Notes under the pieces: model-generated | The model's input: only the letters and a program-made list of their open reading frames with translations | Databases searched by the model: none | What the model was told of the DNA's origin: nothing | Translations under genes and position numbers: made by a program | Source: a virus | IMG/VR virus record: IMGVR_UViG_3300010339_000002 | Span: 5,329-69,328 of that record | Strand: one strand, 5' to 3' | DNA length: 64,000 nucleotides | Shown here: one piece after another, positions 32,359 through 54,544 of the stretch | Layout of the letters: each line of letters begins with the position of its first letter | How positions within the stretch are numbered: position 1 is the first letter of the stretch

Positions 32359-32397
32359 AAAACAAAAAACCCGCCGAACCTTCTCGGTCAGCGGGTC
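32359..32397 (-). terminator. intrinsic terminator (attenuator) directly upstream of first tRNA
   Basis: GACCCGCTGACC-GAGAA-GGTTCGGCGGG then TTTTTTGTTTT. Confidence 0.85.
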
Positions 32398-32423
32398 TGG
32401 AATTCTTGGATTGGAGATTTGAT

Positions 32424-32558
32424 CTACGTTACGATCACTCCATCGAAGAACGGACCCGCCGCGGTATTCCACCGCTGGCCGTCGCCCTGATGCTTTCGGG
32501 CGGCTCTCGTCGAATTGGATTTCCTGAAGGTCATGTTCTTAACCACAATACTGCGCAT
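32424..32558 (-). CDS. attenuator leader peptide, Arg/Lys/Asn/His/Gln/Trp-rich (44 aa)
   Basis: MRSIVVKNMTFRKSNSTRAARKHQGDGQRWNTAAGPFFDGVIVT*; alternative in-frame ATG at 32534. Confidence 0.75.
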   Translation of the reverse strand: MRSIVVKNMTFRKSNSTRAARKHQGDGQRWNTAAGPFFDGVIVT

Positions 32559-32562
32559 CTAC

Positions 32563-32590
32563 ATAATACACCAGACAGCGGGAAAATCAA
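32563..32590 (-). promoter_or_regulatory. sigma70-like promoter of tRNA operon
   Basis: TTGATT-N16-TATTAT. Confidence 0.6.
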
Positions 32591-33668
32591 TAGGAATTGT
32601 CGAAAATATTTCAAGAAAGGTCGGACTAGGGCTAAAACCAGCAGTTTCAATGGGTTTTCCGCTAGTCGTGGCTCAGCCATTGGTAGTAAAGCAGGCGGCA
32701 GATGCAGCCGGGGACGTTGTTCGTGCCGTGCCCCATGCAGTTCGGATTGGCATCGGCCTGCTCCGGCACGTCGGGCACCAGCGCCGCTTTGAGCCAGTCA
32801 AGTAATCGTTTAATCATCTGTCGCTCCGATGTTGCTCGCGTTCACCCACGAACTGTCGGGATAGAAAAACTCCGCAAGTTCGCAGCACACGTAAGCCCAC
32901 TCACCGTTGATTTTAATAGTCATCAGGGGACGCTGCAAGTCCTCCGCCTCGTTCTCGTAGTGGCAGCCGGGGCAGCACTTTACTCCGGTGTACTTGAAGT
33001 CCTTGCACGTCTTCATTGCTTCCACTGACGGAATTCCCCGGTCGGCTGGAAACAGCGCTGGCATATTTGCGATTCGATCTCACACTGAGGAGCCCAAAAA
33101 GTTTGCTGGCTGTGGCCGACCGCATGGCAGACGAAGATGCCAAAGGAATCCTTGAGCAAATATTCGCGGCTTCGCCAAATCTCTTTCCATCTTCGTGGGT
33201 TCCTTACTCGGGACCAGAGCACCTGTCGTCCCCATTTGCTGAAAACGTTCCAGCCTTCCCTTGCCGCTCCGCTCATTTTTCCATCCTTTCCCAGTGCCCG
33301 CCCTCGGCGCACGTCCCGCCGACCCAGCGCTGCTTGGGCCGGAGAGCATTCGTCTCTCTGCGTTGCTTTGCGAACTTATCCGCCATGCCGGGGTCTTTCC
33401 TTTCCCTGTGGCTTTTCTTTGCTGTTTCTTTCGCCATTACCTCTCCTTGGTCTCCGACTCAATGTACTCGGCCATCTCCTCGGCTTGCCATCGGGACAAT
33501 TTCCGCGGCCGACCGGAGCGCAACCAAGTGCAAACATCCTCCGCCTTCTCTTGGCCCGAACGGATCGCCTCGATGAACGGCTGGGCTTCGTCCTCGATCC
33601 TCTCTTCCGCTCTCATGAGGGTCGGGCTCACAGCGACCATCATGCCGTTTGCTTCAGCCCTTCTCAGA

Positions 33669-34421
33669 CTATCCCTCAGTTTTCCCATGTTCTTTTTCCT
33701 CGCCTTTGATGGCTTCCTGAACTTCGGCGGGAAGCAAAGCAATTCGCTCCCGCGTGACGATTTCCGAACGGGAGGGATTCGCGGAATAAACGTACGGAAT
33801 GCTCTCTCCGCTCTCGTCCCGATAATCCATATAGTGGGTGAGGTACACCCAAGGCTGCTCCTTCCATACGGGCAGGAACGGGCCGACCTCGCGGAACTGC
33901 TGCAAGTGGAACCGGAAGGCTTCGCGGGCGTCAATGTCGGCGATCAGAGTGTCATCGCGCCAATGGCCGGAATACCCGACAGGAATGAGAACTCCCGTAC
34001 CAACGTGGAGATTGAAATAGCAGGTGCCGCCGTTCAGCTTGCCGTAATAGGTGTCGAATTTCAGGAGCAGCCCCTCATCGGCTTTCCAGAAAACATAGAG
34101 GGTTTCATTTACGTCTGGCTCTCTCCTGCTTTTGCCGACGAAGGGGAGGGCTAGAACCTGCTTGAATCCCTCCGCCTCGATGACCTCGAAATATTCCTTA
34201 AGCGGCATGGCCCAGTAGGAATCGTTGCGTTCCTGAAGCCCCGCCTTCCTGTGCCTGCCATTTTCGTGCATCAGAGCCATCCCCAGCCAGACGGTAGATT
34301 CGTCGTCGTGGGAGTCCTTCCCGGTAATTTTTTCTGCCGTGTCCAAAGCGTCGAACGCCAGCAATCGCTTGAGCTTTGAATCGGGAATTACTGACTCTTT
34401 TTTCTGTGGTTTGGTGCTCAT
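33669..34421 (-). CDS. hypothetical phage protein
   Basis: 250-aa ORF in coupled chain. Confidence 0.7.
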   Translation of the reverse strand: MSTKPQKKESVIPDSKLKRLLAFDALDTAEKITGKDSHDDESTVWLGMALMHENGRHRKAGLQERNDSYWAMPLKEYFEVIEAEGFKQVLALPFVGKSRREPDVNETLYVFWKADEGLLLKFDTYYGKLNGGTCYFNLHVGTGVLIPVGYSGHWRDDTLIADIDAREAFRFHLQQFREVGPFLPVWKEQPWVYLTHYMDYRDESGESIPYVYSANPSRSEIVTRERIALLPAEVQEAIKGEEKEHGKTEG

Positions 34422-34844
34422 TTCTTATTGCTCCAATGCTTCTCTTCGAGGGGATTGCACTCCGAGCAGCGCCAGCCATAGACATGCCCGAAGAACACCC
34501 GAGGCTCCATGGGAGCTTCACATTTCTCGCAGAGCGGCACATCCATGCCAAGCATCAGCGATGTGTCGCCGAGTGGCCTCTCGGACCTGACGGGCTCGTT
34601 GTCCACCAGCGGGTCGAATATGTCGAAGATGCTCATACATCTACAATCTTATACCAGAGCTTGCGAATCTTGATAAAAAGCGGCTCCGGCTTGATCCCAT
34701 TAGGTGGATAGAACCGCTTCATCAGGCAATCGGGGCACTCGTGCCGGAGGTGCAAATCCGTGATGTACTCCTGACCGCACTGGCAGCGCTCCAGCAAGTG
34801 TGCCTCTTGCCTGCCCCGCACGTCGAGGTCTATGTGCTCGTCGT

Positions 34845-35138
34845 TCATAATATCTTCGCCTCCCCAAGATGCGGACGCTTGCGCTTCCACTCGATCCACT
34901 TCCGCACAGCCGGGTGCGCCTTCAGCTTCTCAATGGTATTGTACTCCCGTTCAAGCTCTTTTTCACTGAAAAGGGCGTGAAGCTGGTTGTGGCACGGGCG
35001 GCACATGTCGGCGGTCTTTTTCCGCTCGTCCCCAAAGTCCCGCTTCACCTTCCGATTGTGCCGCATCCGCGGGATCAGGTGGTGGTCGGTCAGCCGCATC
35101 CCGTCCATCTCGCAAAGCTCGCAGACCCCTACTCCCAT
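34845..35138 (-). CDS. small HNH-type protein
   Basis: CELC...LTDHHLIP...CRPCHNQLH. Confidence 0.8.
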   Translation of the reverse strand: MGVGVCELCEMDGMRLTDHHLIPRMRHNRKVKRDFGDERKKTADMCRPCHNQLHALFSEKELEREYNTIEKLKAHPAVRKWIEWKRKRPHLGEAKIL

Positions 35139-35581
35139 AGACTGTGGGGCTCCCGTGGCCAGAATCGATACTCACGTTTCTTATCCGGGTCATAAAAGCC
35201 CCAAGACCTTGCAAGTCGATTAGCCTCCCATTCATCGGGCCGCTCTTCGTAGTGAGGCATCTCTTTAGCCATATCGATTGGTCCGGCGTGTCTCAGAGCA
35301 ACGTGAGCAAATTCGTGCGCTACTGTGTAGTTTACTCGTTCCTGCGGATCGGTTTCAAGGATGGGGTCTAAGTAGATGTGCCAGCGGTTGGTTCCTCCGC
35401 TTTGCCAAGCAGAACCCGATACATTGCTGGGTGCGAGAATATCTACATTTAATTCATCCAAGACACCACCGGGCACTCTCGCCGCAAAATATTGCAACGC
35501 TTTGTAAGTTTTAGCTCTGCGTTCTTTATCTATTGACCAACAGAACCGCTTCTCGAATTCTTCCCAATCCATGCTTGCCAT
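35129..35581 (-). CDS. ImmA/IrrE-like zinc metallopeptidase
   Basis: YTVAHEFAHVAL.H ... EWEANRLA. Confidence 0.7.
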   Translation of the reverse strand: MASMDWEEFEKRFCWSIDKERRAKTYKALQYFAARVPGGVLDELNVDILAPSNVSGSAWQSGGTNRWHIYLDPILETDPQERVNYTVAHEFAHVALRHAGPIDMAKEMPHYEERPDEWEANRLARSWGFYDPDKKREYRFWPREPHSLWE

Positions 35582-36990
35582 CCTAATCGAACCGAATCGT
35601 ATTTCCCTTGAAGAGCCCGGAGCAGACCGCGCCGCTCACAGGCTTTCCCGAGGGAGACACCGCCGTGAAGCCTGTGCTGAACAGATCATGGTTGTCACAG
35701 GTGAACCAGCGGTATCCCGTTGTCTGCACATGCGTGTAGCCGTTGTCTTCCAAGGTTTTCTGTGCTGTGACGGGAGAAGTACAGGCCATGGGCATAAGAA
35801 TGATGTACAGGACTATCCCCGCCAAGATAAGGAATCCTTTCAGGATTGTCTTTGCGTCGTCTTTATCCACGGCTATTCCTCTTTCAAGTAGGACTGCGCG
35901 TCCCACATCGAGACGTGCTGTCCGCTCTCCGTGACGACGCTGAATCCGCCTTGCGACGGTGGTGCTAGTTCCCCGTTCGGGCCGATGCCACTCTTGGAGA
36001 CGATTCTCTCCACGCGGCCCCCGACCTTCACGTGGGTCGCTTCCCTCACATCAACGCCCTCTTTCATTGTTTTTCCCTCTGTCACTCTTGATCGTTGTCT
36101 CTCAAGGCGAGCACATGCACGGCATGGCACGTTTCTTGTGCATGGGCAACAAACGCCGCCAGAGACTTTTGATCCCCGCGTTGTCCGAAAACAAGCATGC
36201 TCTCTGTTTTGTCGTTTGCATCGGTCACATCAAAGTTTCCCTTGATTTTCCCATCGGGAGTAAGAAGCAGCTTGAGTTCTGATGTCAATCCGTTTTTACC
36301 GCTTGACACGCGCACAAAAGTAAGGATGTCCACCTCTTGGTCGCCATAGGGCAGGCGGTCGCCTTGCTTGAATGCATACTTGAATCCGGCGCTCTTATGG
36401 CGACGCTCTTTTCGCAACCCCACCCCGTAAAGGGCTGACAAACTTTGCTCGTACTTTGCGGTGATAACATCGTCTGTCACTGACAAGCTGTATCGCCCAC
36501 CCTCAGTGTCGGGGTTTCCGCAGAAAGCCAGATTCCACTCGCCAGCCATCTTGGCTTGGGCAGCGATCAGGTCCGGACCCAGCAGTGCAAAATCCGTGTC
36601 CTGTTGCCCAAAAAGAAGCAGCGAACTCCCCAGCAGGATGACAGCAAGTAGCGCGCAATACGGTGTCCATGTTTTGAAATTCATCATTCTTCTCCTCGGG
36701 TTCTCATTTCTTTGAGTTCCCAAATCTTTGCCCTGTAGTGCCGGATGGCACGCATCACGTCTTCTTCGGTGACACAGCTTGTCGCGTGGATGCCAGCCGA
36801 CGCGAGGACTTTGGCGCTGTAATGCGGAAGGTTTCGAATCTCTTCCTCCAGCGAATCCACCGGGTCTTCGGTGTTCGCCGAGGACGCGGGGTCGTTGGCC
36901 CAGTCCGTAAGGTCTTTCTCTACGCCGCCAACCGCCACGCCGAGCCAAGGCTCGGGACCAGTTGGAACGTGGGTACAAACACCTATCGGC

Positions 36991-37971
36991 TTAGCTTTTT
37001 TCTTTGGCATCAGCCTTTTCCTTCTCGTAAAGCTCCATGGCCACCTTGACCATCTCCCGCTCGACCCATTTTTGGTCTTCCCATTCCTTGATGGCTCCCG
37101 GATTCGCTTTGCAGTGCTCCGATATCCACCATGTTGACGCGGAGAACGCCTTGCTGATAATCCGCAAGACCGCATTGCTTTGGTTCCAGACCGTCTCCTG
37201 CGCGGCGGTCACGATGTCACTGACCTTGCCGAGATCAACCGCTGGGGGCAAGCCGGAAGCCAGCCGGGCAGCTTCGAGTCGGGTGAAAAGTTCCTGTGCG
37301 ATCTCTTCAATGTCCCTCAGGGTTCCGGCTTTACCCTTCCGGATGTCAATCAGGTGCTCCCTTTCGGGGCGGGGTAGCGTGATCCTGCCCGTCTGCATAA
37401 GCTCAATGCCCTCGTTGAGCACGCGGACCAGATGCATGGCCGCCTTAGTATCGTAGCCAAACTCGGCGATCAAATCCAGCCGCTTCCCCCGCTTGCCCTG
37501 CCCCTCGCCCTTGAGCGTGCGGAGCATGTGCTCGCAGAACTTTTGGAAATGCAGCCCGGCGTGGGAACTCAGGAACACGGGGATATTCGGCGTGACGAAG
37601 TGCTCCCAGATGTCGCTCTTGGGTGCGAGGTTGTTTACGAACATGAACTCGATGGCGCTCGGGTTGCCGGATGTTGCCATCTTCGCCCACTTGCGGAGGG
37701 AGTACATGTTCATGTCGATGTCCCCCGCATTGTTGCGCACCTTGTCTCCCGCCGTGCTCCAGACCCAGTGCTCGTCCACGCCGCGGACGCCGACGATCTC
37801 TTCCAGCGGCGGGACGTATACGCCAAGCAGGTCGAAATCGCTTTTGTTTTCTAGCTTCACGCCGTGCGCTGCGGACCCGCCGATGAAGAGGTGGACGGTT
37901 TCGCCCAAGTACGGATAGTCGGTGTTTTGGACGATCAGTTCGTAGATTTCTGGCGCTTGACGAGGAACCAT
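36991..37971 (-). CDS. Pol-beta superfamily nucleotidyltransferase (YcgL/RlaP-like, RNA-repair associated)
   Basis: GGSAAHG....SDFD..GVY, GNPSAIE, GYDTKAAMHLVR. Confidence 0.85.
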   Translation of the reverse strand: MVPRQAPEIYELIVQNTDYPYLGETVHLFIGGSAAHGVKLENKSDFDLLGVYVPPLEEIVGVRGVDEHWVWSTAGDKVRNNAGDIDMNMYSLRKWAKMATSGNPSAIEFMFVNNLAPKSDIWEHFVTPNIPVFLSSHAGLHFQKFCEHMLRTLKGEGQGKRGKRLDLIAEFGYDTKAAMHLVRVLNEGIELMQTGRITLPRPEREHLIDIRKGKAGTLRDIEEIAQELFTRLEAARLASGLPPAVDLGKVSDIVTAAQETVWNQSNAVLRIISKAFSASTWWISEHCKANPGAIKEWEDQKWVEREMVKVAMELYEKEKADAKEKS

Positions 37972-38184
37972 AGATTACACCCTGCTAGTATTGTGAATGT
38001 TGCTGGCAAAAATGCAAGATCAAAGCGGTGCATGCGCAGCATCATGACCGCCCAAATGCAATTTCCTACGATGCTTGCGGCCCATCCGGCCCTGAGGTAC
38101 TGCCGTCCGAGAAGGACGTAGCACAGAATGAGCACAAAATTGGCGAACCAGATCATAAGACTTAATACTGAATTGTCAATTTTA

Positions 38185-38643
38185 TCAGGAATTTTCTATG
38201 CGGGCCTCAAACGGGAGCCTCGCCTGATAGTGGCGACTGTCCTGTTTCCAGCAATTGCATGGAGCACACATGGTTTGTAGGTTCTCAAGGCTGTCCGGCC
38301 CACCCTTTGATCTCGGAAGAACGTGATCTTTCGTCATGAGGATTTCCCGGCCATCCGCCCGCACCGCATAAAGATTGAAATGCCAAGTCTTGGCAGTAGC
38401 CTTGAAGCCCGAACCGTCCTTGAGTTTCTTAGCGCTGCGTTCCTTGGCGAAGTATTTTCCTTCGAGCCCGCAACTTACGCAGACCAACGACCGGGCGAAA
38501 ATCTGGTACCGCAGGGAGATGACCGGGATTATGTCGCCATCAAACATCGCCCAAGCGTTACCAAGCTGCGACAGTACGGCCTCCACCGTGTAGATGCCGT
38601 TGCGCTCGTAGCCCGGATGGAAGCCGATCTTTAGAGGGGCCAC
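38185..38643 (-). CDS. HNH endonuclease
   Basis: CVSCG...TKDHVLPRSKGG.D..ENLQTMCAPCN. Confidence 0.85.
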   Translation of the reverse strand: MAPLKIGFHPGYERNGIYTVEAVLSQLGNAWAMFDGDIIPVISLRYQIFARSLVCVSCGLEGKYFAKERSAKKLKDGSGFKATAKTWHFNLYAVRADGREILMTKDHVLPRSKGGPDSLENLQTMCAPCNCWKQDSRHYQARLPFEARIENS

Positions 38644-39592
38644 TTATTTCTCTTTTCTCGGCATACAGAATACACACTTTTTGGGGTCGCATTTCCCTGC
38701 GGCGTGCGCATCCAAGTTCTTGATGAACTCGATCTCGGCATCGAAGTCCAACACGGTTTCGGTCTTGTGGAATCCCATCGGGGGACGAGGCGGCTTGGGT
38801 TTCCCGCTCATTCTTCCGGAATCCTTTCGACACCCAAGATTTCCGCGGTCTCGGCCTGCTCCAGCCTGCTGATCCGCTCGCCGCTGACGTAGCTGGCGAC
38901 GAAGTCGAGGATGTCCCTGCCGGGGACTCGGACCTCGTTGCCTGTTCTCATGTCCTTAACGTATACATCGCCGCTCAGGTCTTGGTTATGGTTGAAGATC
39001 GTGGCCTTGCCAGTGAACGTGTGCATCAGCGCCACCCTTCATTAGATGACGGCCTAACGTCCGGGTCCGGGAAACTTACCTGAGTCCCGAACGCCTCCAT
39101 CAGTTCCTTCTGGTCCTCGTAAAGGAACTGCGTCCAGTTGCCACCATGGTCGTGCTGGGCGACTTCAAGAAAAACGCAACGGGGATCGCCGCCGCTCATG
39201 CTCCGGTACACGCGGGTAACCTGCGCCAAGCCGCCGATGACATCGTCCTCGCCATGGTCCAAGTAGAGGCAAGTCTGCGTGTAGATCAAATCACTTGGTT
39301 TCGGCACCCAGTGCTTGCCAGACTTGATCCGCATGCGGAGAATGGCGATCTGCTCCCGCGAGAACATGTTCTCGCCCTTTCGGCAGAACTTCTTGCCGCG
39401 CTCCGTCGCATACCAACTGCCCTCGGAGGTCGTTGCGACTTTGATGTAGCCCAGCTTTACCAGCCGGGCCAACGCTTTGAAATCTTCCGTGGTTCTGGCT
39501 TGGTGCGTGTATGCCGCTGAAACTGATTTCCTGACAAGAGTCACGAGGTGGCTCTTTTCCAGTGCGGATAGGCGTGCTTTCATTTGCCCCCC

Positions 39593-40216
39593 TTAGGCGT
39601 TGTACTCGAACTCCGCGATCTTCCCGCCGTTGGCCCTGTGCTGCCGGAGGAGGGAAACCACCTGCCAGCCGAGAGCAGTCAATTTGTACTGCGGGTTGAT
39701 CCCCGTGCCCACAGACGAGACGAGTCCCGCAGCTTCCAGATCATCGCAGCAATCCCAGTCGTCGTGGTCCTTCAGTTCGCCGAACTTGTAGCGGGTGGGA
39801 TATTCCCCGGTGCTGCCCTCATGGGCAAGGTACGGATGGAGCATGGGGTTGCAGCGCATCTGGCGCTTGTCCGGCTTGCCACCGTGGTCCACGCAGCGAG
39901 TCTCAATGTAGACGAAGGTTGACCAATGGTCCGCCCCGAATTGCTGCATGGGGACGAATTTCTTGACCGCCTTGTGCCGGACGTTCTTCGCCGTCGTCTT
40001 TGACGGTCGGTAGAAAGCGGCCAAGCTGTTGATCGTCGTGATCTGTTCGCCCGGCTGGTATTCCACGTTGATCCCGCGGAGAGTCCCCTCCTTGATGAGG
40101 AACAGCCCGCCGTCTTCGGCTGGCTTCAAGCACTCGACAACCGCCGTGCCGAAGCGGCTGTGCACCATGCGGTAGTTCTTGCCCCGCACCAGCTTCTTGC
40201 TAGATATGGCTTTCAT
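39593..40216 (-). CDS. hypothetical phage protein
   Basis: 207-aa ORF with SD GGAG. Confidence 0.7.
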   Translation of the reverse strand: MKAISSKKLVRGKNYRMVHSRFGTAVVECLKPAEDGGLFLIKEGTLRGINVEYQPGEQITTINSLAAFYRPSKTTAKNVRHKAVKKFVPMQQFGADHWSTFVYIETRCVDHGGKPDKRQMRCNPMLHPYLAHEGSTGEYPTRYKFGELKDHDDWDCCDDLEAAGLVSSVGTGINPQYKLTALGWQVVSLLRQHRANGGKIAEFEYNA

Positions 40217-41710
40217 GCTTCATCTCCTGTCTTATGATAGCATAAACTCCGGCTTGAACATAGCTCATTGGACCTTTTCGTCATAAAGCTTGCATCGCAG
40301 GACGAACGCCGTCATGCAAGCCTGCACGAATTCGCGGCTCATGCACTCGTTGTCGCACTCAACTTTTCCATCCGGCCGCCGGACAAATGTCAAAACCCCA
40401 AAGCCGAACCCCTTGATGGCCCACTTGATCTCGAATCCCTCTCCGCGATCGTGCTTGAACGTGCTCCCGAGCGTGCAGGCGGCGAACTCCCACTTGCCGA
40501 CTTTGATGGGTATTTCAAGCATGGTCGGTATGTCAACGACTACCCGGCCCTCGGCGACAAGCTTCTTGATCTCTTTTAGCCGTGCCGCGCTCGCGGGTTT
40601 TTTCCGAGGTTTCATTGTTCCTCTCCGCAATTCGGGCAATTCCTGTTCCCCGTGGGCACCCGAGTCCCGCAGTGCTTGCACCGCTTGTGGGGCTGCTCGA
40701 AGTCCCCGATGCTGATCTCTGCCCGTGCAAGCTGGCCGAGCAAGTCCTGACCGTGGTCCAGCCCCCTGTTGTACGCCGTCGCGATCGCGTTTCCAACCGC
40801 TATGTAGAATTCGTTGACTAGCGCCCGCTGCTCCGGCGTCATGAGGTGGAACGTGCTGAATGTCCCTTTGGGGTAGAACGACCCGGTGTTCGGGAGCACC
40901 GGGACCATAGGATCGCCTGCTTTGTCATCGTGGTCAACGGGAGGCGAAAAAGCCCGGAGTAGCTTGAGGTACAGTTCCGCCACTTCGTCATAGCGGTTCC
41001 CGAGGGAGTCGCCCCACGCAGGGCCGTAGCCTTCAGTACAGACTTCGCACAGGTTCGGGTCCTTGAGGTGCTTGCGCACTCGGTACCTGCGCTTCGGCTT
41101 GAACGTCTCAGTCATATTGATGGGTCTTTACCCTCTTGCCACTTCCGATGCACAACTCTTCTCCCTCCGGCCGAAGGTCGCCCCGTTTTCTCTCTGATGG
41201 AAAATGAACACGCAATTTCCCGCCGCGCTTTGCGATGAAGCGCCCGCAGTCTGGACAAACTCCGAATGCTCGCTTAGGCATTTATTCCCATCGCTTTCTT
41301 CAACCGCTTGACCGCCTTCGTCAAAGCAGCGCAGTCGTCGCATCCACAAGGCCTCCAAATGAACTCACCGTCCTCGTCCAAATCCATCGGCCCGCAGAAC
41401 GGAACGTGCATTGCATTCCTGCGAGATGCGTGCTGCTCCAGAATCCCCTCAAGAATTTTGAGTGTCTTTTCCATTCAGCGTAAATTACTCCAATTTGTAC
41501 AACTCCTCAAGTTCCTTCTCTTCACAAAGCTCGCGAGTCGGAATCCTAAATCCGCCCGGTGTGTCTACCGTGCCGTCCGGGTTCACCACCCAGCCCACCT
41601 TTTCGCAGTAGGCTTTGTCGGGAAACGGAATCCAATGAGCGAATATGCCACGGATCAAGTCTGGGTCGAACTTCACGCCACGGCATATGTCCTCAAGCTC
41701 TTCCCGTGAC

Positions 41711-45909: not shown

Positions 45910-47412
45910 GCTCAGGAGCTTTCTTATGAACCTGATCCAATGGTAACTCGACGATCCTGCCGTCGATGTTCACCCCGGCGAAGGAATACGGATGCTTCTC
46001 ACTGCCATGGTCCACAAGGTAGTGGATGCGTCCCTCCACAACTACAAGATCGTCGATTTTGAGATTGTCCATTACGGGCACCTTTCACGGGACTTTTCTG
46101 TTGTTCGTTCTATCCGTTCCTCCCACTAATGCAGCCGCCCCGCCCGCGTACAGACGACCCAAATGCCAAAACCAACCTTCACCGCAAAGAAAATTGCAAT
46201 CAGAATCAAGAATCGCAGCCGATGATTGCTGCGCACGATCATTTTCTTATCGCTCCTAATTCCACCACCTTGCGTCCGTTCTCGGTGATGCGATATTCGT
46301 TGTTCCGCCATGCCCAAGCCGGGTCGCCAACAGCCTTGATCCAGCCCCAATCGGCGAACTTGCACATGGTGTCAGTGCGGACCCCTTCCCGACCCCTTAT
46401 GTCATCGCCTATGATGAGCGATGCGCTGGATGGTCCCCTGATGCCGGAGAACCAGCGGATTTCCGCACCCTCTTGACAGAGCTTCCTGAGAAGTTCCATC
46501 TGCTTCGCGGTCGGCTTGGGTCCGAGGGACTCAGGCATAGACCACCTTCCTTCCTGAGCAATACGGGCATTCCTTCATCGGGATGGTGCCATTGGTGTAC
46601 TGCTCCGTGGTGAAGGGCGTGACGGCGACCCGCTTGGTGTCGAGGCACCAGTTGCAGGCGGGCGACTTCGCAAGAAATGCCAAACGCTTGCTCTTGAATG
46701 CCGCCTTTTGGTCAACCGCCATTTTTCCAGTCCTTTTCGAAGACGGCCAATGCCTCTTCGAGCGAAGTCGAATACATCGGCCCAGATTCCCATGTCAGGC
46801 GCTTGCGCATCCACGAACCTTCGTCCCGCTTGTCCAGCAAAATCAGGTTGCAGCCCCGACGATACGAGAACATCTTATCATAACGCTCGGTCGCCGCCTT
46901 CGAGAACTCCGCGATTCGCCGGAGTTCCTCGGTCGTGTATTTCTTGGGCTCGCCGCAGACCGCAACGACGCTCTTGAGGTCGGGCTTGTCTTTGGTGGGT
47001 TGGTCGAGCGCCCACATCATAGAGTTGGCGACGGAGCAGATGCCGAACCCGTAGCCCCCGGAGTTCCACTCCAGTTGGTTGATTAGGGCCTTCCGCTCTT
47101 TGGCGGCGGCTGTCTTGATGCTGCCTAGTTTCGCTCTCAATGCCATCAGATGCTTGTTCATCGCTTCCCCTCAAAAATTGGAATATCCGATGCCCGGTTC
47201 CACGTTGGGGTATACGCGCTGGAACTCGCGCCCCGCCTCGAACGCTTGCAGGAGTAGCGCCTGAAACGCTTGCAGGCGGTTCTCAGCCGCTATCTCCTCC
47301 GGCGTGGGGCGATCTCCTGCCGGGAGCGGAAAGAGGCTCTCAACGGTCGCCAGCGAGTCGGGGGCGTTCTTGCGATACCAATCGAGAATGGCTAGGACGT
47401 TCTTTGGGTGCT

Positions 47413-47721
47413 TCATACTGCCTCCCTGCTGTGGCGTATGATCTTTTGAATAGCTTCTTGGGCACTTTGGATGACTTCCTTATGCTGCTCTATTTGTTTC
47501 ATGAAAAGCGTGCTTTCAGCGCCCATCACGAAGAGGTCGGTGCGGAGGGGGAATTCCTTGTAGGCGAATTCGACATAGCCCCCGCCGCTCGGGATTGGAG
47601 TGCGCGCTTTGTGGGCCTCGGCTTCTACGAGGTCCGTGGTAACGCCAACGGCGGTTTCAGCCTCGAACTTCGGGGCCTTTTTGATTTCCAGCAAGACGTA
47701 GACCGATAATACAGTTTCCAT
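47413..47721 (-). CDS. hypothetical protein (leaderless)
   Basis: ATG 6 nt after TATACT (METVLSV). Confidence 0.65.
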   Translation of the reverse strand: METVLSVYVLLEIKKAPKFEAETAVGVTTDLVEAEAHKARTPIPSGGGYVEFAYKEFPLRTDLFVMGAESTLFMKQIEQHKEVIQSAQEAIQKIIRHSREAV

Positions 47722-47727
47722 ACCCCC

Positions 47728-47756
47728 AGTATACAGGAGGCCGGGGGTTTTCGCTA
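47728..47756 (-). promoter_or_regulatory. repeated phage promoter
   Basis: TAGCGAAAACCCCCGGCCTCCTGTATACT-N6-ATG. Confidence 0.85.
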
Positions 47757-48129
47757 CCTCAGTTAACCGAAGTTTCGGGGGAAACAAGCCCCTTGTTTCT
47801 GGCTACTTCCAACTGGCCGTCGGCGGCGAATCCGATCCAATCCATGCCCGAGTTCTTGGCGCAGCCCGGATCGTTGCACTCCGCAGCATGCTTATCCATG
47901 AGGCATAGGGGGCACGGGGCGTCCTCGTACATCATGCTCATGCCGAACGCTTCAAGGGCGTTGTTCCAGATGGCAAAGTTCGCCGCTATCAGCGGATCGT
48001 AGGCGTCGGAACCCTCAAGCTCATCCGTAACGATTGGTGCTGCTTTCGCGCCGCTGCCAGCAACGAGATGTCCAAGCCCCCGCGCTTCGATTGCTTCCTT
48101 CAGCCCATCCCAATGCTCTTGGCAGATTT

Positions 48130-48453
48130 TCATCGCTTAGCCCCCAGAATAATTGCTATGATGGCGAACGCAAATGCCAGCGCCCGCCGTACAGTCAGCG
48201 GCTCTTGGAAAAACCAAATGCTCACGGCGAGGCATGCAAGCAGCATACCTGTCTCCCAGATCAGTGCAAGCTGCCCGAAGTCCGTAACCCGAAAAGCGAT
48301 GGCACAAGGATATGCCGCAATTGCGTAAAGCACCGTTCCGAGGAACAGGTTCCACCAGAACCGCTCGGTCGCGCTGCGCTTCAGGAACACATCCGCCAGC
48401 AGCACGGACCCGATCCCGCCGGAAACAACCGCTGTCAGTACCCACCATTTCAT
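48130..48453 (-). CDS. SMR/DMT-family small membrane transporter
   Basis: 107 aa, four hydrophobic helices, FFQEPLT. Confidence 0.65.
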   Translation of the reverse strand: MKWWVLTAVVSGGIGSVLLADVFLKRSATERFWWNLFLGTVLYAIAAYPCAIAFRVTDFGQLALIWETGMLLACLAVSIWFFQEPLTVRRALAFAFAIIAIILGAKR

Positions 48454-48592
48454 TTTTTAGGCACCACCCAGATGATGTCATGACGCTTGTAATGGAGAAA
48501 ATCGCCATAGATAGCAAGAACCAAATTGTGCACGATAATCATGGTTGCAAGCAATAGGATCAACGACAGCAGAGTCGAAATCCCGTAGATGA

Positions 48593-48874
48593 TCAGTCGT
48601 CGCCGCATGAATCGGCCAATTCCGCGATCACGTCGCCGTGGCACGCTTTCGGCTTGCACCAGCATCCGAGCGTTTTTCCGCGGACTTCATGTAGCTTAGC
48701 CAGCAGTTCGGGCTTTTGCAACAAATATCGCCGGAACCTTTCGATCACGCACTTGCGCCCGCAGCCAGACTCAACCTTGAAGGGGTTACACCAAGGGGAC
48801 TCGGGGAACTCAGCAAACGCACGGCCTATATAAAGATCAAACGCATCCTTGCGAACGTGGACTACTCGGGTCAT
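48593..48874 (-). CDS. DUF4326-family protein
   Basis: YIGR...SPWCNPF...GKTLGCWCKPKACHGDV. Confidence 0.85.
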   Translation of the reverse strand: MTRVVHVRKDAFDLYIGRAFAEFPESPWCNPFKVESGCGRKCVIERFRRYLLQKPELLAKLHEVRGKTLGCWCKPKACHGDVIAELADSCGDD

Positions 48875-50212
48875 GGGTTGTCGGGCGTGCGCTGCCCGAA
48901 AAGCTTTCTGCCGATCAGTTCGCAATGCATGAGGAGCAATTTCATTAGCGAATCGCATTTAGCCTCAGGCGCGCCTGCCGCCTTCATCGCTTCTGCCGCC
49001 CGCGTAGCTTCTTCCAGCACCACATCATCAAACTGCTTTCGTGTTACGGTTACCATATGGGCTCCTTATTCGACTATTCCACCCGGCCCGATAACAATCA
49101 GCCCGGAACGCTTGCCGAATGTGACGTTTTTCTTTTCGCTCATGTCGGGATACGGCCCGTTGAATTTACGGAATTTGCCGTGGGAGAAAGTGAAAGCGCA
49201 ATCGCTTGTACCACTGTCGTCCCAAGGCCACGGCCATCCGTTTTCGGGGAACGAGGCATCATCGCGTGTTTTCAGCCAAGCCAAGACGGCTTTGCGATAT
49301 CCCTTCTCGCTTCTGGCCTTCTTCACGGAGTCTTCGACTTCGTCGCCGTCCCAAGCGATGGAGCCGATCCACTCCGCCTTGCGTCCCGTCCCTACGTAAT
49401 AGTCAGCGCGTGTCCCCATCGTTGTCTCCTAGAAAATGTACCCCAATTTTTAGCTAGTGCTAAGAATCATCTTCATCTTTTGCCAACTTTCCAGTCGCCC
49501 ACGCCAAGGCAATGAGTGCCAAAGCAGCTATAACTGTTCCTACTTTCACTCGCAACTCCCGGCTGGGGCCGGGCTCGGGTTTAACATCGAACGGTCCCCA
49601 CCCGAAGAGCCGCGCCAATTCATCTTCCTTTTGACTCAAGGATGTAGCATGGTACGGCGGCTTCCCGGCAGCGGAACACACACCGCTGTGATGCATTGTC
49701 TGGGTACCGCAGATATGACATCTCGGTTGGTTCAGGGTTTGGGGGGTAAACTCTTTGTCGGACTCGAAGTCGGCTTTTGTCGGCTTGTAGACTGCGTGGC
49801 GCTCTATGTTCGCCCGCACCTTGGCGGGATCGCAATGCCAACGGCTTCCATTGATGTACTTGTTTTCCGAGACCGCAGGATTAGCGTGCTCCCATCCGTA
49901 GATAACGCGCTGCCTGACCCCCGCCCACGGCTTGGTCAGTTTGATCGGTTGGCAGCAGTAGTAGCAGAGCGGTTGCCAATCCTCGCCCCTCCACGGATAA
50001 TCTGGATTCGACGGCGGGATGAGTTTGTTGTATTCCCTTATGGACGGTACGTCGGTGCCGCTGCCATGGCAAAAAGCGCAGAAGCCCGTAACCCGGCCTC
50101 GATGAAGGTCGTCCTTAGCCGCCCAGCCCGTTCCCCCGCATCGCATACAGCAACCCATACAATCTCCTAAATGTGGTGTTCTCCAAAATATATAATACCA
50201 GACTCCTTAAGT

Positions 50213-50731
50213 ATGGCAACAACAAAAGAACTTTATCAACAAAGAAAAGCAAACAACCTTTGTGTGGGCTGCGGAAAACTGCCCCCGGAACAAAACCGAG
50301 TAAGGTGCACCGCTTGCTTGAAATTAGCGGCAACTCAAGGGATGAATCACTTCAATAGCCTGACTCTGGCACAACGCAGAGAAAAATATAGGCAGATGAA
50401 TTGTTATCTGTCCCGCAAAACCAACCGAGATAGATGGAATAAACTTGAACGTGCCAGAAACTTCCAATTAAAGACCGAAACCATCAATGCCTATGGTGGA
50501 AAGTGCGTTTGTTGCGAGGAGACAGAAGTGAAGTTTCTCACTCTTGACCACGCTAATGGAGATGGTAAAAACCACAGGGCCAAGCTTGGAGTCGGTGCCG
50601 GAGTTCAGTTCTATGCCAAGCTCAAGAAAATGAGTTTTCCACCTTGTGGGCTTCAGGTTATGTGCGCCAATTGCCACCAAGCAAAGAGTAAATACGGAGT
50701 TTGTCCGCATCAGCAAAAGGGTCAAATATGA
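50213..50731 (+). CDS. HNH homing endonuclease, antisense to flanking genes
   Basis: YGGKCVCC...LTLDH.NGDG..H...LQVMCANCH; TATAAT at 50191. Confidence 0.85.
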   Translation: MATTKELYQQRKANNLCVGCGKLPPEQNRVRCTACLKLAATQGMNHFNSLTLAQRREKYRQMNCYLSRKTNRDRWNKLERARNFQLKTETINAYGGKCVCCEETEVKFLTLDHANGDGKNHRAKLGVGAGVQFYAKLKKMSFPPCGLQVMCANCHQAKSKYGVCPHQQKGQI

Positions 50732-51909
50732 CAATCAACGACAGTCAGTAGCGTACTATCCGGTAGGCTGTCGATCAAGTCCGAAAATTGCTCCAACCAC
50801 TGGTCTTCGTCTTTTTCGTCGTGAACCGCTCCCCACCAGCCCATCTCGCCGCGTTCGTACCATTGCCCATCCTTCACGACGGCGAACGTGGAAAAAGCCC
50901 CCTTGCGGGCGCGCTCGATGTATTTCTCGCGGGTGCAAAGGAAATCGTCCGCATCGAACCAACGGGCGTCCCTGTCCTTGCTGTCGCGCAGCGCCTTGAT
51001 CGCTGGCTGTTCGCCGTATTCCTTGCGGGCGGCTCCCCAATCGACGGCGGGCAAGCCCTCATCCATCCCGCCCGTACGGTTGCGATCCTGCACTTCCTTC
51101 CATGAAAGATGCGCCGGGCATCCTTCGGTGACGCTGGCGAACAGATCGTACTGTTCCGCCGCTTTGGCTCCCGCCTCGTCCTTCATGCCTTCGATGTCGA
51201 TGTCGCCTTTCATGCACAAGTCGGCGCGGTCTTCCTCCGGTTCCTCGTAATCCGGGTCCATGCGGTTGAGCCCCGGCTCACCAACGGCACCCGATGCTCC
51301 GGCTTTCAGCTTGAAGAAACCGTTCCAGCGCCCGCCGACTTTATACCAGTCCCAGTGTTTGTTCGGGTTGGTACGGTCGATCACCTTGACGGCCTCCCCC
51401 TTTTCGTCAAGCTGGGTCCAGCCGTACTTGTGTTCTTCCTTCAAGTCCGGGGTCTCGCCATGGAGCAGTGGCTTGTGCCCGTAATACCCCTCGACGAAAT
51501 CGCGGAAGCTCTCCACGGTGTTTGCGTTGACCCGGACTTCTTTCCAGCCCTCCGGCAGGAAATGAACCTTGGAGCGGTAGCCCAGCCCATCGTTCCAGTC
51601 TTGCGATGTCCAGCTAATCCCGCTGCCGCCACCCATGCCGAGCGGTCCCTTGCCATTGAAGTTGCCGTGCTTCTTGAGTTCCTCTTCCGTGAATTCCCGG
51701 TAAAACTGATCCTGATACGGATTGTGAAGGTTGCCTTCGGGGTCTTGGTACCGCAGCTTCGTGTAGGATTCGTATTCCTTCCGCGCCTCGTCGGTTTGAT
51801 CGATATTTTGCACGTACTTGTTGTCATCCCCCGTGCATTCGAACTCGTGGAACGGAGCAAGCTGCTCCTCCGTGTTATCACCAACTACCAGAACAGTGAA
51901 ATGTGACAT
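50722..51909 (-). CDS. conserved phage-type hypothetical protein
   Basis: MSHFTVLV...NP..HWDWY.VGGRW...GEMGWWG...TVVDCHI pattern. Confidence 0.8.
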   Translation of the reverse strand: MSHFTVLVVGDNTEEQLAPFHEFECTGDDNKYVQNIDQTDEARKEYESYTKLRYQDPEGNLHNPYQDQFYREFTEEELKKHGNFNGKGPLGMGGGSGISWTSQDWNDGLGYRSKVHFLPEGWKEVRVNANTVESFRDFVEGYYGHKPLLHGETPDLKEEHKYGWTQLDEKGEAVKVIDRTNPNKHWDWYKVGGRWNGFFKLKAGASGAVGEPGLNRMDPDYEEPEEDRADLCMKGDIDIEGMKDEAGAKAAEQYDLFASVTEGCPAHLSWKEVQDRNRTGGMDEGLPAVDWGAARKEYGEQPAIKALRDSKDRDARWFDADDFLCTREKYIERARKGAFSTFAVVKDGQWYERGEMGWWGAVHDEKDEDQWLEQFSDLIDSLPDSTLLTVVDCHI

Positions 51910-52954
51910 GGTTCTCCCTCAGGTATAATTGCCTACGGTGTCAGATACTCAGGAGCTTAGCATAAGCCCATACGTCGAATACCAGCAACAGTAGGTCAAA
52001 GCAAAACAGTATTGCAACAACCAGACGCATCAGTCCCTCTCAGCCCATCCCCAAAAGAACCACCACTCTCGTCCCCAAGAATTCAAGTGCCCCGTGCATG
52101 AAAATCTATCATCCACAAGACCGTAGCAAAGCACTCGAATTCGGCCAAACCACGCGCACCTAATACGAAATGGTACCTTGATCACCCGCTGCTCCTCAAA
52201 TTCAGCGTCCCAACCCCTTGAGCCTCGCGCGCGACCGCGACCCCGAGGCGAATAGCTTCGGCACCGGAGCTACAAAGCGGAAGAGCCGGATGTCACTGTG
52301 CTTCATGTAATTCGCAATTTTCGTGATGCCCTCGGCTTCCCGCGCTTCCTTGGTAGCTTCCAAGCAAAACATCCCCGAGGGATTGAAAATATTGACTGGC
52401 GCGGACTCCGCTTTCCGATATTCCCGGACAGGAAACGCATCAATGGCGATTCGGCGCATTTGCGGCGTTGCTTTTGGAACCGGAGCATCCGGCGGGGTTT
52501 GAGCCTTCAAACCCATGGCGAGCAGAGAAGCCAAGATTAGTATGCTGGCCCTCACGGATGGTCATCTCCCAAGAATCCGCTGACCCAGCCCTGTGTCTTG
52601 CCGTCCGAATAGCCAAGAAAGTACGCCCCCACAGCAACCGCAGGAATCACGATCAGCAGGAAAAAATTCGCCACGACCCGAACGGTGAATGCGTCCAGTA
52701 ATCCTGTTAGAACATGCATCCAAACTCTCCTTCAACCATTCTATGGGAATGCGGGCATCTTGCAAGGAAATTCGGCGTCCCATCACACCACCTCAAGGTG
52801 CCGACTGTGCCATTCTGCATGTTCGGGGCAGAGCCAGAGCTTTACCAACACCGACTTGCCTTCCTCAACAACACTGTAGGCTATGAAATTGTGGGCGATC
52901 CTGCCGCAAAGCTCGTAGCGGCCCGTCCCGCCGATTTCCTGCTGGCAGTAATGT

Positions 52955-53224
52955 TCAGTCACGGGGGTCGTCCTCATAGAACGCCAAGGCCGTTTCGCTG
53001 CCTGCGGGAACTTCCGTGAATCCGGCGTCCGTAACCGCGTAGCAATCCGGATGGGCGGCCTTGGCCTCCTCGAACTTCGCATCGCTGACATCCAGCGTCA
53101 CGCACGAGAAGTACTCCGTGGAGCAGAGCTTGTACAGGCCGAGGGCGGCGTGCACGCACTGGGCACGGGATTTGCCGCAAGTCATTTTCAGGTTGCGCCT
53201 GACCAGAATCTTAATCCTCTTCAT
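52955..53224 (-). CDS. peptidyl-tRNA hydrolase 2
   Basis: ILVRRNLKMTCGK..AQCVHAA...DAGFTEVPAGSETALA. Confidence 0.9.
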   Translation of the reverse strand: MKRIKILVRRNLKMTCGKSRAQCVHAALGLYKLCSTEYFSCVTLDVSDAKFEEAKAAHPDCYAVTDAGFTEVPAGSETALAFYEDDPRD

Positions 53225-53497
53225 CGTAGAAATCTCCGTAATCAAAATCGTCAGGCTTTCCCCGTCTCACCCAGTCGTCATACCCCGCTTTGTAGGCCAC
53301 CGCTTCGTCATAGTGGTCGGCGCAAACAAATTCCGCGTAGTTATAGATCGTGCCTTTCACCAACCCGCCCGGGTCGTACGAGGGGTTGCGGAACTTGGCA
53401 AGCTTGAAGCAGCCGATCCGGCATTTCTCGCAGCTTACGCTACAATCGCACGGACCCTTGAAGATTTGGACATCGCAGAAATGTTCTTCCACGCGGA

Positions 53498-53854
53498 TTA
53501 CCCGCTTCCGGCACAAATACAGTCGCTAGACAGCGCCTTGATGACCTTTAAGTAGCTCTTACCCCCCACATCCGGCTGCAAGGCTTTCAACAAGGTGACG
53601 GGCTTGCTAAGGATAAAAGCCATGCCAAGATCAAAATGACTGCCCTTTGAGTCAACATCCCACACAATGCCAACCGCATCGCACTCGCGCATTGCCTTGG
53701 CGTGGGCATTGCAGATATCGATACCCACAGGGTCGGATTGGTCAACATCTCTCGGCGGAAAGTGGACGGTATGCCCCCCATCTTCTAGCTGTCGTACAAT
53801 TCCTGCGGAATCAAAGGACGCGTTCCGAACTGGGCAAATCAAATATATTTTCAT
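53498..53854 (-). CDS. nucleoside 2-deoxyribosyltransferase-like protein
   Basis: KIYLICP...HFPPRD...CDAV...SKGSHFDLGMA. Confidence 0.7.
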   Translation of the reverse strand: MKIYLICPVRNASFDSAGIVRQLEDGGHTVHFPPRDVDQSDPVGIDICNAHAKAMRECDAVGIVWDVDSKGSHFDLGMAFILSKPVTLLKALQPDVGGKSYLKVIKALSSDCICAGSG

Positions 53855-54017
53855 TCGCTGTGCTCCATGGAAAGTACGTGGTGAAGATTAATGTTGGCAC
53901 TCGGCTACTTTTACCGTCAGTTAACGCCATTCACCCTTGCGGGTCTTCATCCCTGACAGTTTTATTTCACCCCGCGGCGTTGCCGCTCGCGGCACCACAA
54001 GGACTAATACTGAAGAA

Positions 54018-54109
54018 TGGCGGACGGAGAGAGAGTTGAACTCCCAACGGGCTTTTAGACCCGTAACCGTTTTCGAGACGGCCGGACTTGCCAATGTACC
54101 AACCCGTCC
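54018..54109 (-). tRNA. tRNA-Ser(CGA)
   Basis: GCCGT-CT CGA AA-ACGGT; long variable arm; G73 CCA. Confidence 0.9.
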
Positions 54110-54114
54110 AAATC

Positions 54115-54208
54115 TGGAGGAGAGGAGCGGAATCGAACCCCTAATCCGCCATCTCTGACGGATAGCTGTTTTCAAGACAGCCGGACCTGCCAATGTACCA
54201 ACCTCTCC
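54115..54208 (-). tRNA. tRNA-Ser(TGA)
   Basis: GCTGT-CT TGA AA-ACAGC; long variable arm; U73. Confidence 0.88.
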
Positions 54209-54213
54209 AAAAC

Positions 54214-54303
54214 TGGCGGAGACGGTGAGATTCGAACTCACGGCACCCTTTCGAGTACACATGCTTTCCAAGCATGCGCCTTAGGCCGCTCGGCCACGTC
54301 TCC
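54214..54303 (-). tRNA. tRNA-Ser(GGA)
   Basis: CATGC-TT GGA AA-GCATG; long variable arm; G73. Confidence 0.92.
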
Positions 54304-54310
54304 TAAAACT

Positions 54311-54403
54311 TGGTAGTCCCGGAGGGATTCGAACCCCCAATCACGCCCCAATCTAGGGCTTGCGGTGTATAAGGCCGCTGTTTTACCGTTAAACTACGGG
54401 ACT
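54311..54403 (-). tRNA. tRNA-Ile(TAT) with long variable arm
   Basis: AGTCCCG/CGGGACT acceptor, A73; loop CT TAT AC; variable hairpin GCCC-TAGATTG-GGGC. Confidence 0.75.
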
Positions 54404-54412
54404 ACTTAAACT

Positions 54413-54504
54413 TGGCGGAGTGTGCTGGATTCGAACCAGCGGTCCCCCTTTCGAGGGACGGCGGTTTAGCAAACCGCTGGGTTAAGCCTCTCCCCCAACA
54501 CTCC
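54413..54504 (-). tRNA. tRNA-Ser(GCT)
   Basis: GCGGT-TT GCT AA-ACCGC; long variable arm; G73. Confidence 0.92.
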
Positions 54505-54506
54505 GT

Positions 54507-54544
54507 AAAAACAAAAAAGCCGCCGAACCCTTTGGGCTGGCGGC
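54507..54544 (-). terminator. intrinsic terminator (attenuator) directly upstream of first Ser tRNA
   Basis: GCCGCCAGCCC-AAA-GGGTTCGGCGGC then TTTTTTGTTTTT. Confidence 0.88.

Follow-up and report, generated by a model that had tools for sequence, protein, structure and literature searches.

The DNA analysed here is a window of 64,000 nucleotides (nt), corresponding to bases 5329-69328 of the 69,328-nt soil-phage record IMGVR_UViG_3300010339_000002 (CheckV completeness about 30%); positions are numbered on this window unless a contig label (L0xx) precedes them. All 20 transfer RNA (tRNA) genes called by ARAGORN lie on the minus strand in two groups, and the program found no further tRNAs in the 69,328-nt record. 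Both groups are preceded by the same order of parts, namely a promoter-like element, an ATG 4-6 nt past its -10 box, a small open reading frame (ORF), an intrinsic terminator and the first tRNA. The regulatory codons of each ORF match the tRNA supply of the array behind it, and at both sites the predicted antiterminator shares the 5' arm of the terminator, so that the two pairings are mutually exclusive. These features suggest that both sites are likely to be transcription attenuators of the ribosome-mediated (leader-peptide) type, through which phage tRNA arrays are gated.

Two leader units and their tRNA arrays

At the site with the clearer pattern (site 2), the sigma-70-like promoter element (54658-54687, minus strand; TAGCCA, 18 nt, TATTAT) is followed, 6 nt past the -10 box, by the ATG of the leader ORF (54568-54651, minus strand), which comprises 27 codons plus TAA, encodes MGYIVRISSSSSSSSGAGGGVRVYTTD and is kept in five metagenome contigs. 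Its sensor (54607-54633, minus strand) reads ATA TCG TCG TCA TCT AGT AGC TCC TCA, i.e. the Ile-AUA codon together with every one of the six Ser codons. Six distinct Ser codons inside nine codons were present in 6 of 138,604 windows of the record, and four of these six are the site 2 leader itself. The terminator lies about 150 nt downstream of the promoter and is followed by tRNA array 2 (54018-54504, minus strand; ARAGORN and Rfam), which consists of Ser(gct), a tRNA of 93 nt whose anticodon is tat, Ser(gga), Ser(tga) and Ser(cga).

Folding of the site 2 leader predicted three alternative helices on the minus strand. Helix 1:2 (54587-54636, -25.5 kcal/mol; CGCAUAUCGUCGUC with GGCGGCGGUGUGCG) would tie up region 2 while the sensor carries no ribosome. 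In the antiterminator (54534-54605, -32.5 kcal/mol), GGGCAGGCGGCG pairs with CGCCGCCAGCCC and encloses the leader stop codon (54570-54568); its strand within the ORF is formed by the codons GGG GCA GGC GGC GGT (54605-54594). The intrinsic terminator (54508-54544) consists of a hairpin at 54544-54519 (-18.4 kcal/mol) and the tract T6GT5. Since full-length folds did not discriminate between ribosome positions, switching was modelled on transcripts cut before the 3' arm of the terminator. With a ribosome on codons 2-12 the antiterminator formed, and pairing of the terminator 5' arm reached about 0.9. For a ribosome placed on codons 13-24 or at the stop codon, and for RNA free of ribosomes, the value was 0.55-0.7. 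In the folds with the ribosome beyond the Ser codons, the stop position included, or with no ribosome, the antiterminator was displaced by helix 1:2 or by the ribosome. A textbook attenuator would be expected to fold in this way. We regard site 2 as very probably an attenuator of the leader-peptide type that controls a tRNA operon.

The UAU-anticodon tRNA of array 2 (54311-54403, minus strand; also found at L040 1128-1221) is called Ile by ARAGORN. By eye, this 93-nt molecule has a long variable arm and discriminator A73, i.e. a class II (Leu/Ser/Tyr-type) build, so that the Ile identity is not secure. It is placed among Ser and Leu tRNAs, and the codon ATA precedes the Ser run in every leader.

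At site 1, a sigma-70-like promoter element was detected by consensus scan (32563-32590, minus strand; TTGATT, 16 nt, TATTAT), with the terminator about 200 nt downstream of it. The leader ORF (32424-32558, minus strand) starts with an ATG 4 nt past the -10 box and comprises 44 codons plus TAG, encoding MRSIVVKNMTFRKSNSTRAARKHQGDGQRWNTAAGPFFDGVIVT. Of its 44 codons, 15 have a cognate tRNA downstream, and together they represent all 10 anticodon classes; full coverage was also reached by 474 of 48,876 stop-free 44-codon windows (1.0%). The sensor core (32466-32498, minus strand; CGA AAG CAT CAG GGC GAC GGC CAG CGG TGG AAT) comprises 11 codons, 8 of which have their cognate tRNA among Arg(acg), Lys(ctt), His(gtg), Gln(ctg), Arg(ccg), Trp(cca) and Asn(gtt); of 138,592 windows of this length, 270 contain 8 or more cognate codons.

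The folds predicted for site 1, all on the minus strand, follow the same plan. The 1:2 helix is the hairpin GCCAGCGGUGGAAUACCGCGGC (32458-32479, -11.7 kcal/mol), which occupies part of region 2 and includes the codons CAG CGG TGG. In the antiterminator (32388-32462, -34.5 kcal/mol), CGGCGGGUC pairs with GACCCGCUG and closes an inner hairpin, in which lie the last part of the leader ORF and the stop codon; the ORF strand is ACC GCG GCG GGT (32461-32454). The intrinsic terminator (32359-32395) has its hairpin at 32395-32370 (-16.6 kcal/mol), followed by T6GT4. The switching logic at site 1 would depend mainly on a ribosome at the stop codon having to unwind the antiterminator. This site, too, is probably an attenuator of that type.

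A first-pass annotation of this DNA, made from the sequence alone, had placed the antiterminator arm in Gly/Ala codons directly after the sensing codons, and this was found at both sites. It had also described the sensing codons as completely different, and distinct leader codons indeed stand in front of distinct tRNA sets. In the translated leader ORFs, codon-anticodon concordance is strong at site 2 and moderate at site 1.

Array 1a (31079-32358, minus strand), identified by ARAGORN and Rfam tRNA matches, encodes Trp(cca), two His(gtg), Arg(acg), Arg(ccg), Arg(acg), Gln(ctg), two Asn(gtt) and two Lys(ctt). Array 1b (27829-28710, minus strand) lies past homing-endonuclease genes, is a candidate continuation of the same transcription unit, and encodes Arg(cct), Gln(ctg), a weak tRNA at 28066-27989 and two Lys(ttt). 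The weak tRNA (27989-28066, minus strand) scored 36.8 bits in Rfam, was missed by ARAGORN and has an insertion; its anticodon loop reads TCT by eye (Arg, AGA). Array 1 has several other unusually long tRNAs, namely His with 80 nt, Arg(acg) with 86 nt and Arg(ccg) with 79 nt, and it is divided in two by two homing-endonuclease genes. Genes of the homing/HNH type were annotated at 29260-30361 and 38185-38643, both on the minus strand (Pfam HNH and HNH_5; PHROG homing endonuclease). Directly upstream of tRNA-Arg(cct) lies a G+C-rich, hairpin-rich and ORF-free region of about 350 nt (28711-29060, minus strand), which gave zero Rfam matches, permissive filters included.

The shared terminator block

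The motif GGTTCGGCGG(G/C)TTTTTTGTTTT occurs exactly twice in the whole 69-kb record, both times on the minus strand. A search of the 64-kb window with the 22-mer GGTTCGGCGGSTTTTTTGTTTT, allowing up to 3 mismatches, located these copies at 32359-32380 (with G) and 54508-54529 (with C), where they form the 3' arm and U tract of the two terminators, and gave no match in any of 100 dinucleotide shuffles of the window (0/100). The shared terminator sequence described by the first-pass annotation was confirmed. The copies are identical at 21 of 22 nt, including the unpaired U tract (T6GT4), and where one has G and the other C, the 5' arm carries a compensating change (CCCGC...GCGGG versus GCCGCC...GGCGGC). 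When the record was scanned for hairpins with energies of -9 kcal/mol or lower and five or more T behind them, seven candidates were returned, three of them on the minus strand; sites 1 and 2 ranked strongest with the energies given above, and no other strong canonical terminator is present on the coding (minus) strand.

The gap between the motif and the first tRNA is 0 nt at site 1 (tRNA-Trp, 32358) and 3 nt at site 2 (tRNA-Ser(gct), 54504). A U tract this close to the mature 5' end would also fit a structured 5' leader of the tRNA precursor, in which hairpin and U tract serve processing or stability and the upstream ORF is unrelated. We consider this very unlikely: the stem strength, the loop size and the T6GT4 tract are typical of canonical intrinsic terminators, the alternative pairing with the leader is conserved, and in the phiCbK-like phages described below the equivalent hairpin, labelled a rho-independent terminator by the depositors, is separated from the first annotated tRNA by 23 to about 130 nt.

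Because the identity of the two copies includes the unpaired U tract, copying is favoured over convergence, and the shared 22 nt of 3' arm and U tract most likely reflect common descent or gene conversion within the phage lineage. The first-pass annotation had gone further and suggested that one module was duplicated and re-specified by changing the leader codons. The block is identical at 21 positions, but the leader bodies outside the 22-mer are no more alike than shuffled sequences, 500 of 2000 shuffles reaching their local score. The similarity of the promoters was reached by 37 of 2000 shuffles and is due solely to the -10 stretch GTATTATRTAG; GGTATTAT-like -10 boxes were also present elsewhere in the window, at two positions. 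Two copies are too few to distinguish gene conversion from a duplication with later divergence.

The same data bear on a further explanation, in which the two attenuators have separate origins and the 22-nt block passed from one to the other through recombination or gene conversion, or was fixed by selection for termination or for tRNA-adjacent RNase P processing. The dissimilar leader bodies, the restriction of promoter similarity to the -10 box and the appearance of the 22-mer as a sharply bounded island of identity speak for it. The U tract, which is free of pairing constraint, is nevertheless identical too, and the order of parts and the placement of the Gly/Ala codons are common to both units. 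We regard separate origins as possible and rather unlikely.

In other sequences the block is mostly found without tRNAs. The 18-mer GGTTCGGCGGNTTTTTTG was present at 23 loci in IMG/VR, and no tRNA lay within 1.2 kb of any of them (0/23); in a metagenome collection, 5 of 21 loci of the 21-mer were tRNA leaders and the other 16 were unrelated terminators. A role of the motif as a marker of tRNA leaders in other genomes is not supported, and the shared terminator, which is real and specific inside this genome, is a lineage-specific copy and no general marker. Since the motif is a plain terminator, with no tRNA directly downstream, at all 23 IMG/VR loci and at 16 of the 21 metagenome loci, this distribution would suit another explanation: both sites might be leaky ordinary terminators that close off a small-protein gene or the transcript upstream, the arrays being expressed by constitutive partial readthrough and the ORFs being micro-proteins or chance frames, with nothing sensed. 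The background of about 1% for the codon coverage at site 1 also favours it, as does the annotation of some phiCbK-like leaders as hypothetical proteins. It is set against the leaders of other phages in the following section.

Codon-matched leaders in metagenome contigs and phiCbK-group phages

In the five metagenome contigs with tRNA leaders (L026, L036, L038, L040 and L042), the 21-mer is located 3 nt ahead of a tRNA-Ser array. These contigs contribute three further leader variants, MYIVRISSSSSLTSSGGTVGVRTDI, a version of MYIVRISSSSSLTSSGGTVGVRTDI ending in -IV, and MAIVRISSSSSSSLGAGEGVRTDIA, each followed by a stop codon. The variants retain ATA and all six Ser codons in reshuffled order. 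Their promoters consist of TTGACA, a 17-nt spacer and TACTAT or TATTAT, and the ATG lies 7-10 nt past the -10 box. L040, L038 and L042 have the codon TTA in the leader and a tRNA-Leu(taa) in the array behind it; the window has neither. TTA and tRNA-Leu(taa) thus co-vary in all three testable lineages (3/3); L026 and L036 end too early to tell. ATA agrees with a tRNA(tat) in two of three lineages. Footprint folding of L038 and of L026/L040 predicted that the antiterminator is lost after the ribosome clears the sensor.

The retention of all six Ser codons in three diverged leaders with reshuffled order, and the occurrence of TTA along with tRNA-Leu(taa), argue against leaky terminators behind meaningless ORFs. 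In L038, ARAGORN also reported a transfer-messenger RNA at 369-697 (tag AGEGVRTDIA followed by a stop). This call is false, as it joins the C-terminal part of the leader peptide to a tRNA-Ser, and annotation pipelines may reproduce the same error.

Relatives of the window were otherwise scarce. A tRNA-Ser 24-mer common to all five metagenome relatives had no match in IMG/VR, and a 986-residue protein of the window had zero relatives there. In tblastn searches with a 395-residue protein and with the ligase of the window, no cultured phage exceeded 49% and 32% identity, respectively.

Caulobacter phage CcrColossus encodes a protein, gp105, that shares 34% identity with the 395-residue protein (50722-51909, minus strand). 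In that phage, gp105 is directly followed, in order, by a TTGACA promoter, an ORF encoding MMTYRNNVRQIRVRQFNLAGRSHVGDGGSEG, a depositor-annotated rho-independent terminator and a tRNA array that includes Val(gac), two Ile(gat), Val(cac), Gln(ctg), Gln(ttg), Asn(gtt) and two Arg(acg). The leader codons CGC AAC AAC GTG CGC CAA ATT CGA GTT CGC CAG cover all seven anticodons. By blastn, the CcrColossus leader was found in 47 records of Caulobacter and Brevundimonas phages, 13 of which (62,241 nt) were analysed. Leaders of this family have the form MxxYR(N/Q)(N/F)V.QI.VVR... and stand ahead of Tyr/Phe/Val/Ile/Gln/Asn/Arg arrays. In 88,317 windows of 13 codons from these records, the amino acids Y, F, V, I, Q, N and R accounted for 12 or more codons in 63 windows inside the leaders and in 1 outside.

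The alignment of the 13 sequences also allowed the predicted helices to be assessed by covariation. The terminator (3:4) was paired in 99.3% of cells, with four pairs changed on both sides, and none of 500 shuffles reached its score. The antiterminator (2:3) was 97.7% paired, with two pairs changed on both sides (6/500 shuffles), and helix 1:2 was 93.6% paired, also with two such pairs (0/500 shuffles). All three alternative helices are supported in this phage family by the alignment; the family differs in sequence from the units of the window. The 1:2 helix in the register first drawn for CcrColossus was rejected, as it was just 50% paired in the alignment; a register shifted by one column fits. 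Codons and tRNAs vary together here too, tRNA-Asn being present in all six phages whose leaders have at least two Asn codons and in two of the seven with one. The phiCbK-like phages form few clades and the metagenome lineages are interrelated, so that the co-variation in both groups represents few independent events.

A second leader family was represented by gp083 of phiCbK, MFALSHNSLSTKAASPASLSLAPLATATKPSTKPTTSASHSTDHL, in which 41 of 45 codons are from S, A, L, T, P, K and H. Behind it comes an annotated terminator, with 23 nt between this and an array of Pro, Pro, (Thr), Lys, Lys, Leu x3, (His), Ala, Ser and Ser. Among 40,285 windows of 45 codons, 38 or more codons were from these seven amino acids in 25 windows inside the leaders and in 0 outside. 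In the ORF upstream of the Pro...Ser array of CcrColossus (MTFSTHKPSTLKP...), the Thr codons at first seemed discordant; tRNA-Thr(ggt) was found by ARAGORN in the equivalent arrays of Karma and CcrBL10.

The first-pass annotation had expected the tRNAs to be sorted by amino-acid group into further operons with their own leaders. Such operons exist in kind in the phiCbK-like phages, but one CcrColossus array, Trp-Gly-Gly, follows a plain promoter and lacks a leader. In Myxococcus phage Mx1 the system was not evident, the tRNAs being dispersed and a hairpin located 5 nt ahead of tRNA-Lys lacking a matching leader.

Two leader families that match their arrays far above background, together with an antiterminator that overlaps the terminator arm and is kept in 13 phages with changes on both sides of its pairs, also argue against leaky terminators, and we consider that explanation improbable. 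Attenuation is the reading that we prefer.

As to origin, the comparison with phiCbK leaders speaks in part for separate histories of sites 1 and 2. Around region 2, site 1 faintly resembles the phiCbK Tyr...Arg leader, at GGCGGG(T)CCGTTC (15-186 of 1000 shuffles reach the score), and site 2 shows no such resemblance (548-836 of 1000 shuffles). Homology to the phiCbK leaders is thus at best marginal for site 1 and not apparent for site 2. The two phiCbK leader families themselves carry unlike terminators, which is also in line with separate origins and indicates that it is the plan, and not the sequence of the 22-mer, that is reused among phages.

Some further observations were made at the arrays of the phiCbK group. 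Between the terminator and the first tRNA of CcrColossus (L051 10322-10356) lies a second, Shine-Dalgarno-led mini-ORF of 5-6 codons, of the form GGAGATCG.. ATG AAC AAC GGC GGG TAA or ATG ACY GGC GGN GAC TGA. Its position is conserved, being also occupied in CcrBL10, Papperlapapp and Gurke. A tRNA-like gene with a weak anticodon stem and the loop GAA by eye (Phe) is present at L051 10453-10524 in CcrColossus (Rfam 30.8 bits) and at the same place in L054 and L056. Directly before it is a Tyr(GTA)-like class II tRNA, which is unannotated in several records, so that the annotated phiCbK-type arrays are incomplete.

Attenuation as a proposed feedback on tRNA supply

In the proposed mechanism, a host-type promoter would start the messenger RNA (mRNA) at or beside the ATG of the short ORF. 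The first part of the ORF would offer about one codon for each tRNA species encoded downstream, and the second part, with its Gly/Ala codons and stop codon, would sit within a strong antiterminator whose 3' strand is the 5' arm of the terminator abutting the first tRNA. When the sensor codons are decoded quickly, the ribosome would melt the antiterminator, the terminator would form and the array would be off. If any one of the sampled tRNAs were scarce or uncharged, the ribosome would stall upstream, the antiterminator would stay in place and RNA polymerase would enter the tRNA genes. Decoding capacity would in this way be under a negative feedback that works as an OR gate. The triggers of tRNA limitation may be shut-off of the host, its anticodon nucleases or the codon demand of the phage itself.

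A number of points weigh against this mechanism. Leaderless translation, a transcription start at the ATG, stalling, termination and readthrough are all predictions of the model. Among sequencing runs, the probable source DNA run alone was listed as containing this stretch, and no RNA run was listed. In full-length equilibrium folds with a ribosome footprint the terminator was always favoured (P 0.65-0.99), so that the model depends on co-transcriptional kinetics. Site 1 is the more exposed of the two: the contrast in footprint folding was shallow (0.49-0.94 on transcripts cut before the 3' arm), the codon match is only moderate against the background of about 1%, the ATG 4 nt past the -10 box is tight for a start at +1, and no relatives of the unit were found. 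Among the Ser relatives, L038 has ATA in its leader and no tRNA(tat) within 1.4 kb, the L026/L040 leaders form the antiterminator even without a ribosome, and column-wise covariation across the four distinct Ser leaders gave one pair changed on both sides and did not exceed controls. The five contigs were retrieved through the motif itself, and conservation of the motif among them is not independent evidence. In the phiCbK group, the leaders of phiCbK, Papperlapapp, Bambus and Gurke contain Arg CGN codons and ARAGORN detected no tRNA-Arg in the arrays.

An ordinary gene of the window has a similar start. At 24619-24633 (minus strand), the ATG of a 115-codon ORF lies 8 nt after the -10 box TGGTATTAT, and no Shine-Dalgarno sequence is present. 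With its ATG at the predicted transcription start, this gene makes leaderless starts plausible in this phage or its host, and the sequence hints at a wider use of leaderless mRNAs by either.

Leader-peptide attenuators govern amino-acid biosynthesis operons of enterobacteria, as in trpL, hisL, thrL, ilvL and pheL. The units described here resemble them in the promoter, in the regulatory codons of a short ORF, in 1:2, 2:3 and 3:4 helices that exclude one another and in a terminator right before the genes, and, like thrL and ilvL, they would sense several amino acids together. Unlike the classical attenuators, they are phage-encoded and would regulate tRNA genes, so that tRNA would be both what is sensed and what is produced. 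Their sensor has about one codon per encoded isoacceptor, synonymous codons included, instead of a run of a single codon, and the leader mRNA looks leaderless. At the Rfam gathering cut-off, only tRNAs and no leader family were recovered at both sites; a permissive search gave Trp_leader (RF00513) at site 1 with 16.2 bits against a cut-off of 41 (E 0.83), and nothing at site 2.

The pheM leader attenuates the bacterial pheST operon, which encodes Phe-tRNA synthetase. It shares with the phage units the tuning of a component of the decoding apparatus to tRNA charging by ribosome-mediated attenuation; it differs in being bacterial, in controlling a synthetase and in sensing one amino acid. T-box riboswitches bind uncharged tRNA directly, with no ribosome or ORF involved, and control synthetase and amino-acid genes. 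They are comparable in that a terminator/antiterminator switch reads the state of a specific tRNA, and no T-box match was obtained at sites 1 and 2 in Rfam searches, permissive filters included. The cysteine attenuators reported from mycobacteria (bioRxiv 10.1101/834739) likewise use a leaderless short ORF as the sensing element, there a polycysteine one; as reported, they are bacterial and act on cysteine-related operons, with neither tRNA genes nor phages concerned.

Further counterparts are the units of the phiCbK-like phages (CcrColossus, phiCbK, Karma, Rogue, CcrSC and the Brevundimonas phages). In these, too, the sensor codons match the downstream tRNAs, region 2 is made of Ala/Gly codons (there GCG GGC) and is followed by a terminator, and the tRNAs are grouped by amino-acid set. 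They have a TTGACA promoter with the ATG 7-8 nt past the -10 box, and they differ from the units of the window in that their leader and terminator sequences are unrelated to the 22-mer and in the greater distance between terminator and first annotated tRNA. In the available text of the phiCbK genome paper (PMC3556154), a term search found neither 'attenuat' nor 'leader', and the same text reports that Rfam gave no RNA elements except tRNAs. No published attenuator in front of tRNA genes was found in the full-text literature, the coverage of which leaves out most subscription journals. The arrangement of phage tRNA arrays by amino-acid set, each under a codon-matched leader, appears to be new, and the sequences of an independent family of cultured phages lend it support.

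Several accessory genes lie around the arrays of the window, all on the minus strand. They encode an RlaP-type nucleotidyltransferase (RNA repair pathway family, 36991-37971), a methionine-aminopeptidase-like M24 peptidase (22786-23517), a DUF4326 protein (48593-48958), an HD-domain hydrolase (63193-63846) and an NAD-dependent DNA ligase (58843-60627). In phiCbK-like phages, genes for peptide deformylase and PhoH adjoin the tRNA arrays, and in Mx1 a DUF4326 gene is found near the tRNAs.

The purpose of phage tRNA genes is debated, codon compensation and escape from host tRNA-cleaving defences being the two main proposals, and to our knowledge almost nothing has been established about their regulation. 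On balance, we lean slightly towards the wider view that tRNA arrays of large phages are under a previously unrecognised feedback, exerted by leaderless OR-gate sensors with one codon per tRNA and modular by amino-acid group. If this is true, the phage would gauge the need for its own tRNAs by translation itself and make them on demand, and a classical mechanism would have gained a new class of targets; tRNA supply would also be governed by a simple autoregulatory loop. The design is present in cultured Caulobacter and Brevundimonas phages, including the model phage phiCbK, and is therefore testable with standard genetics. The units could also act as compact, codon-programmable sensors of tRNA availability.

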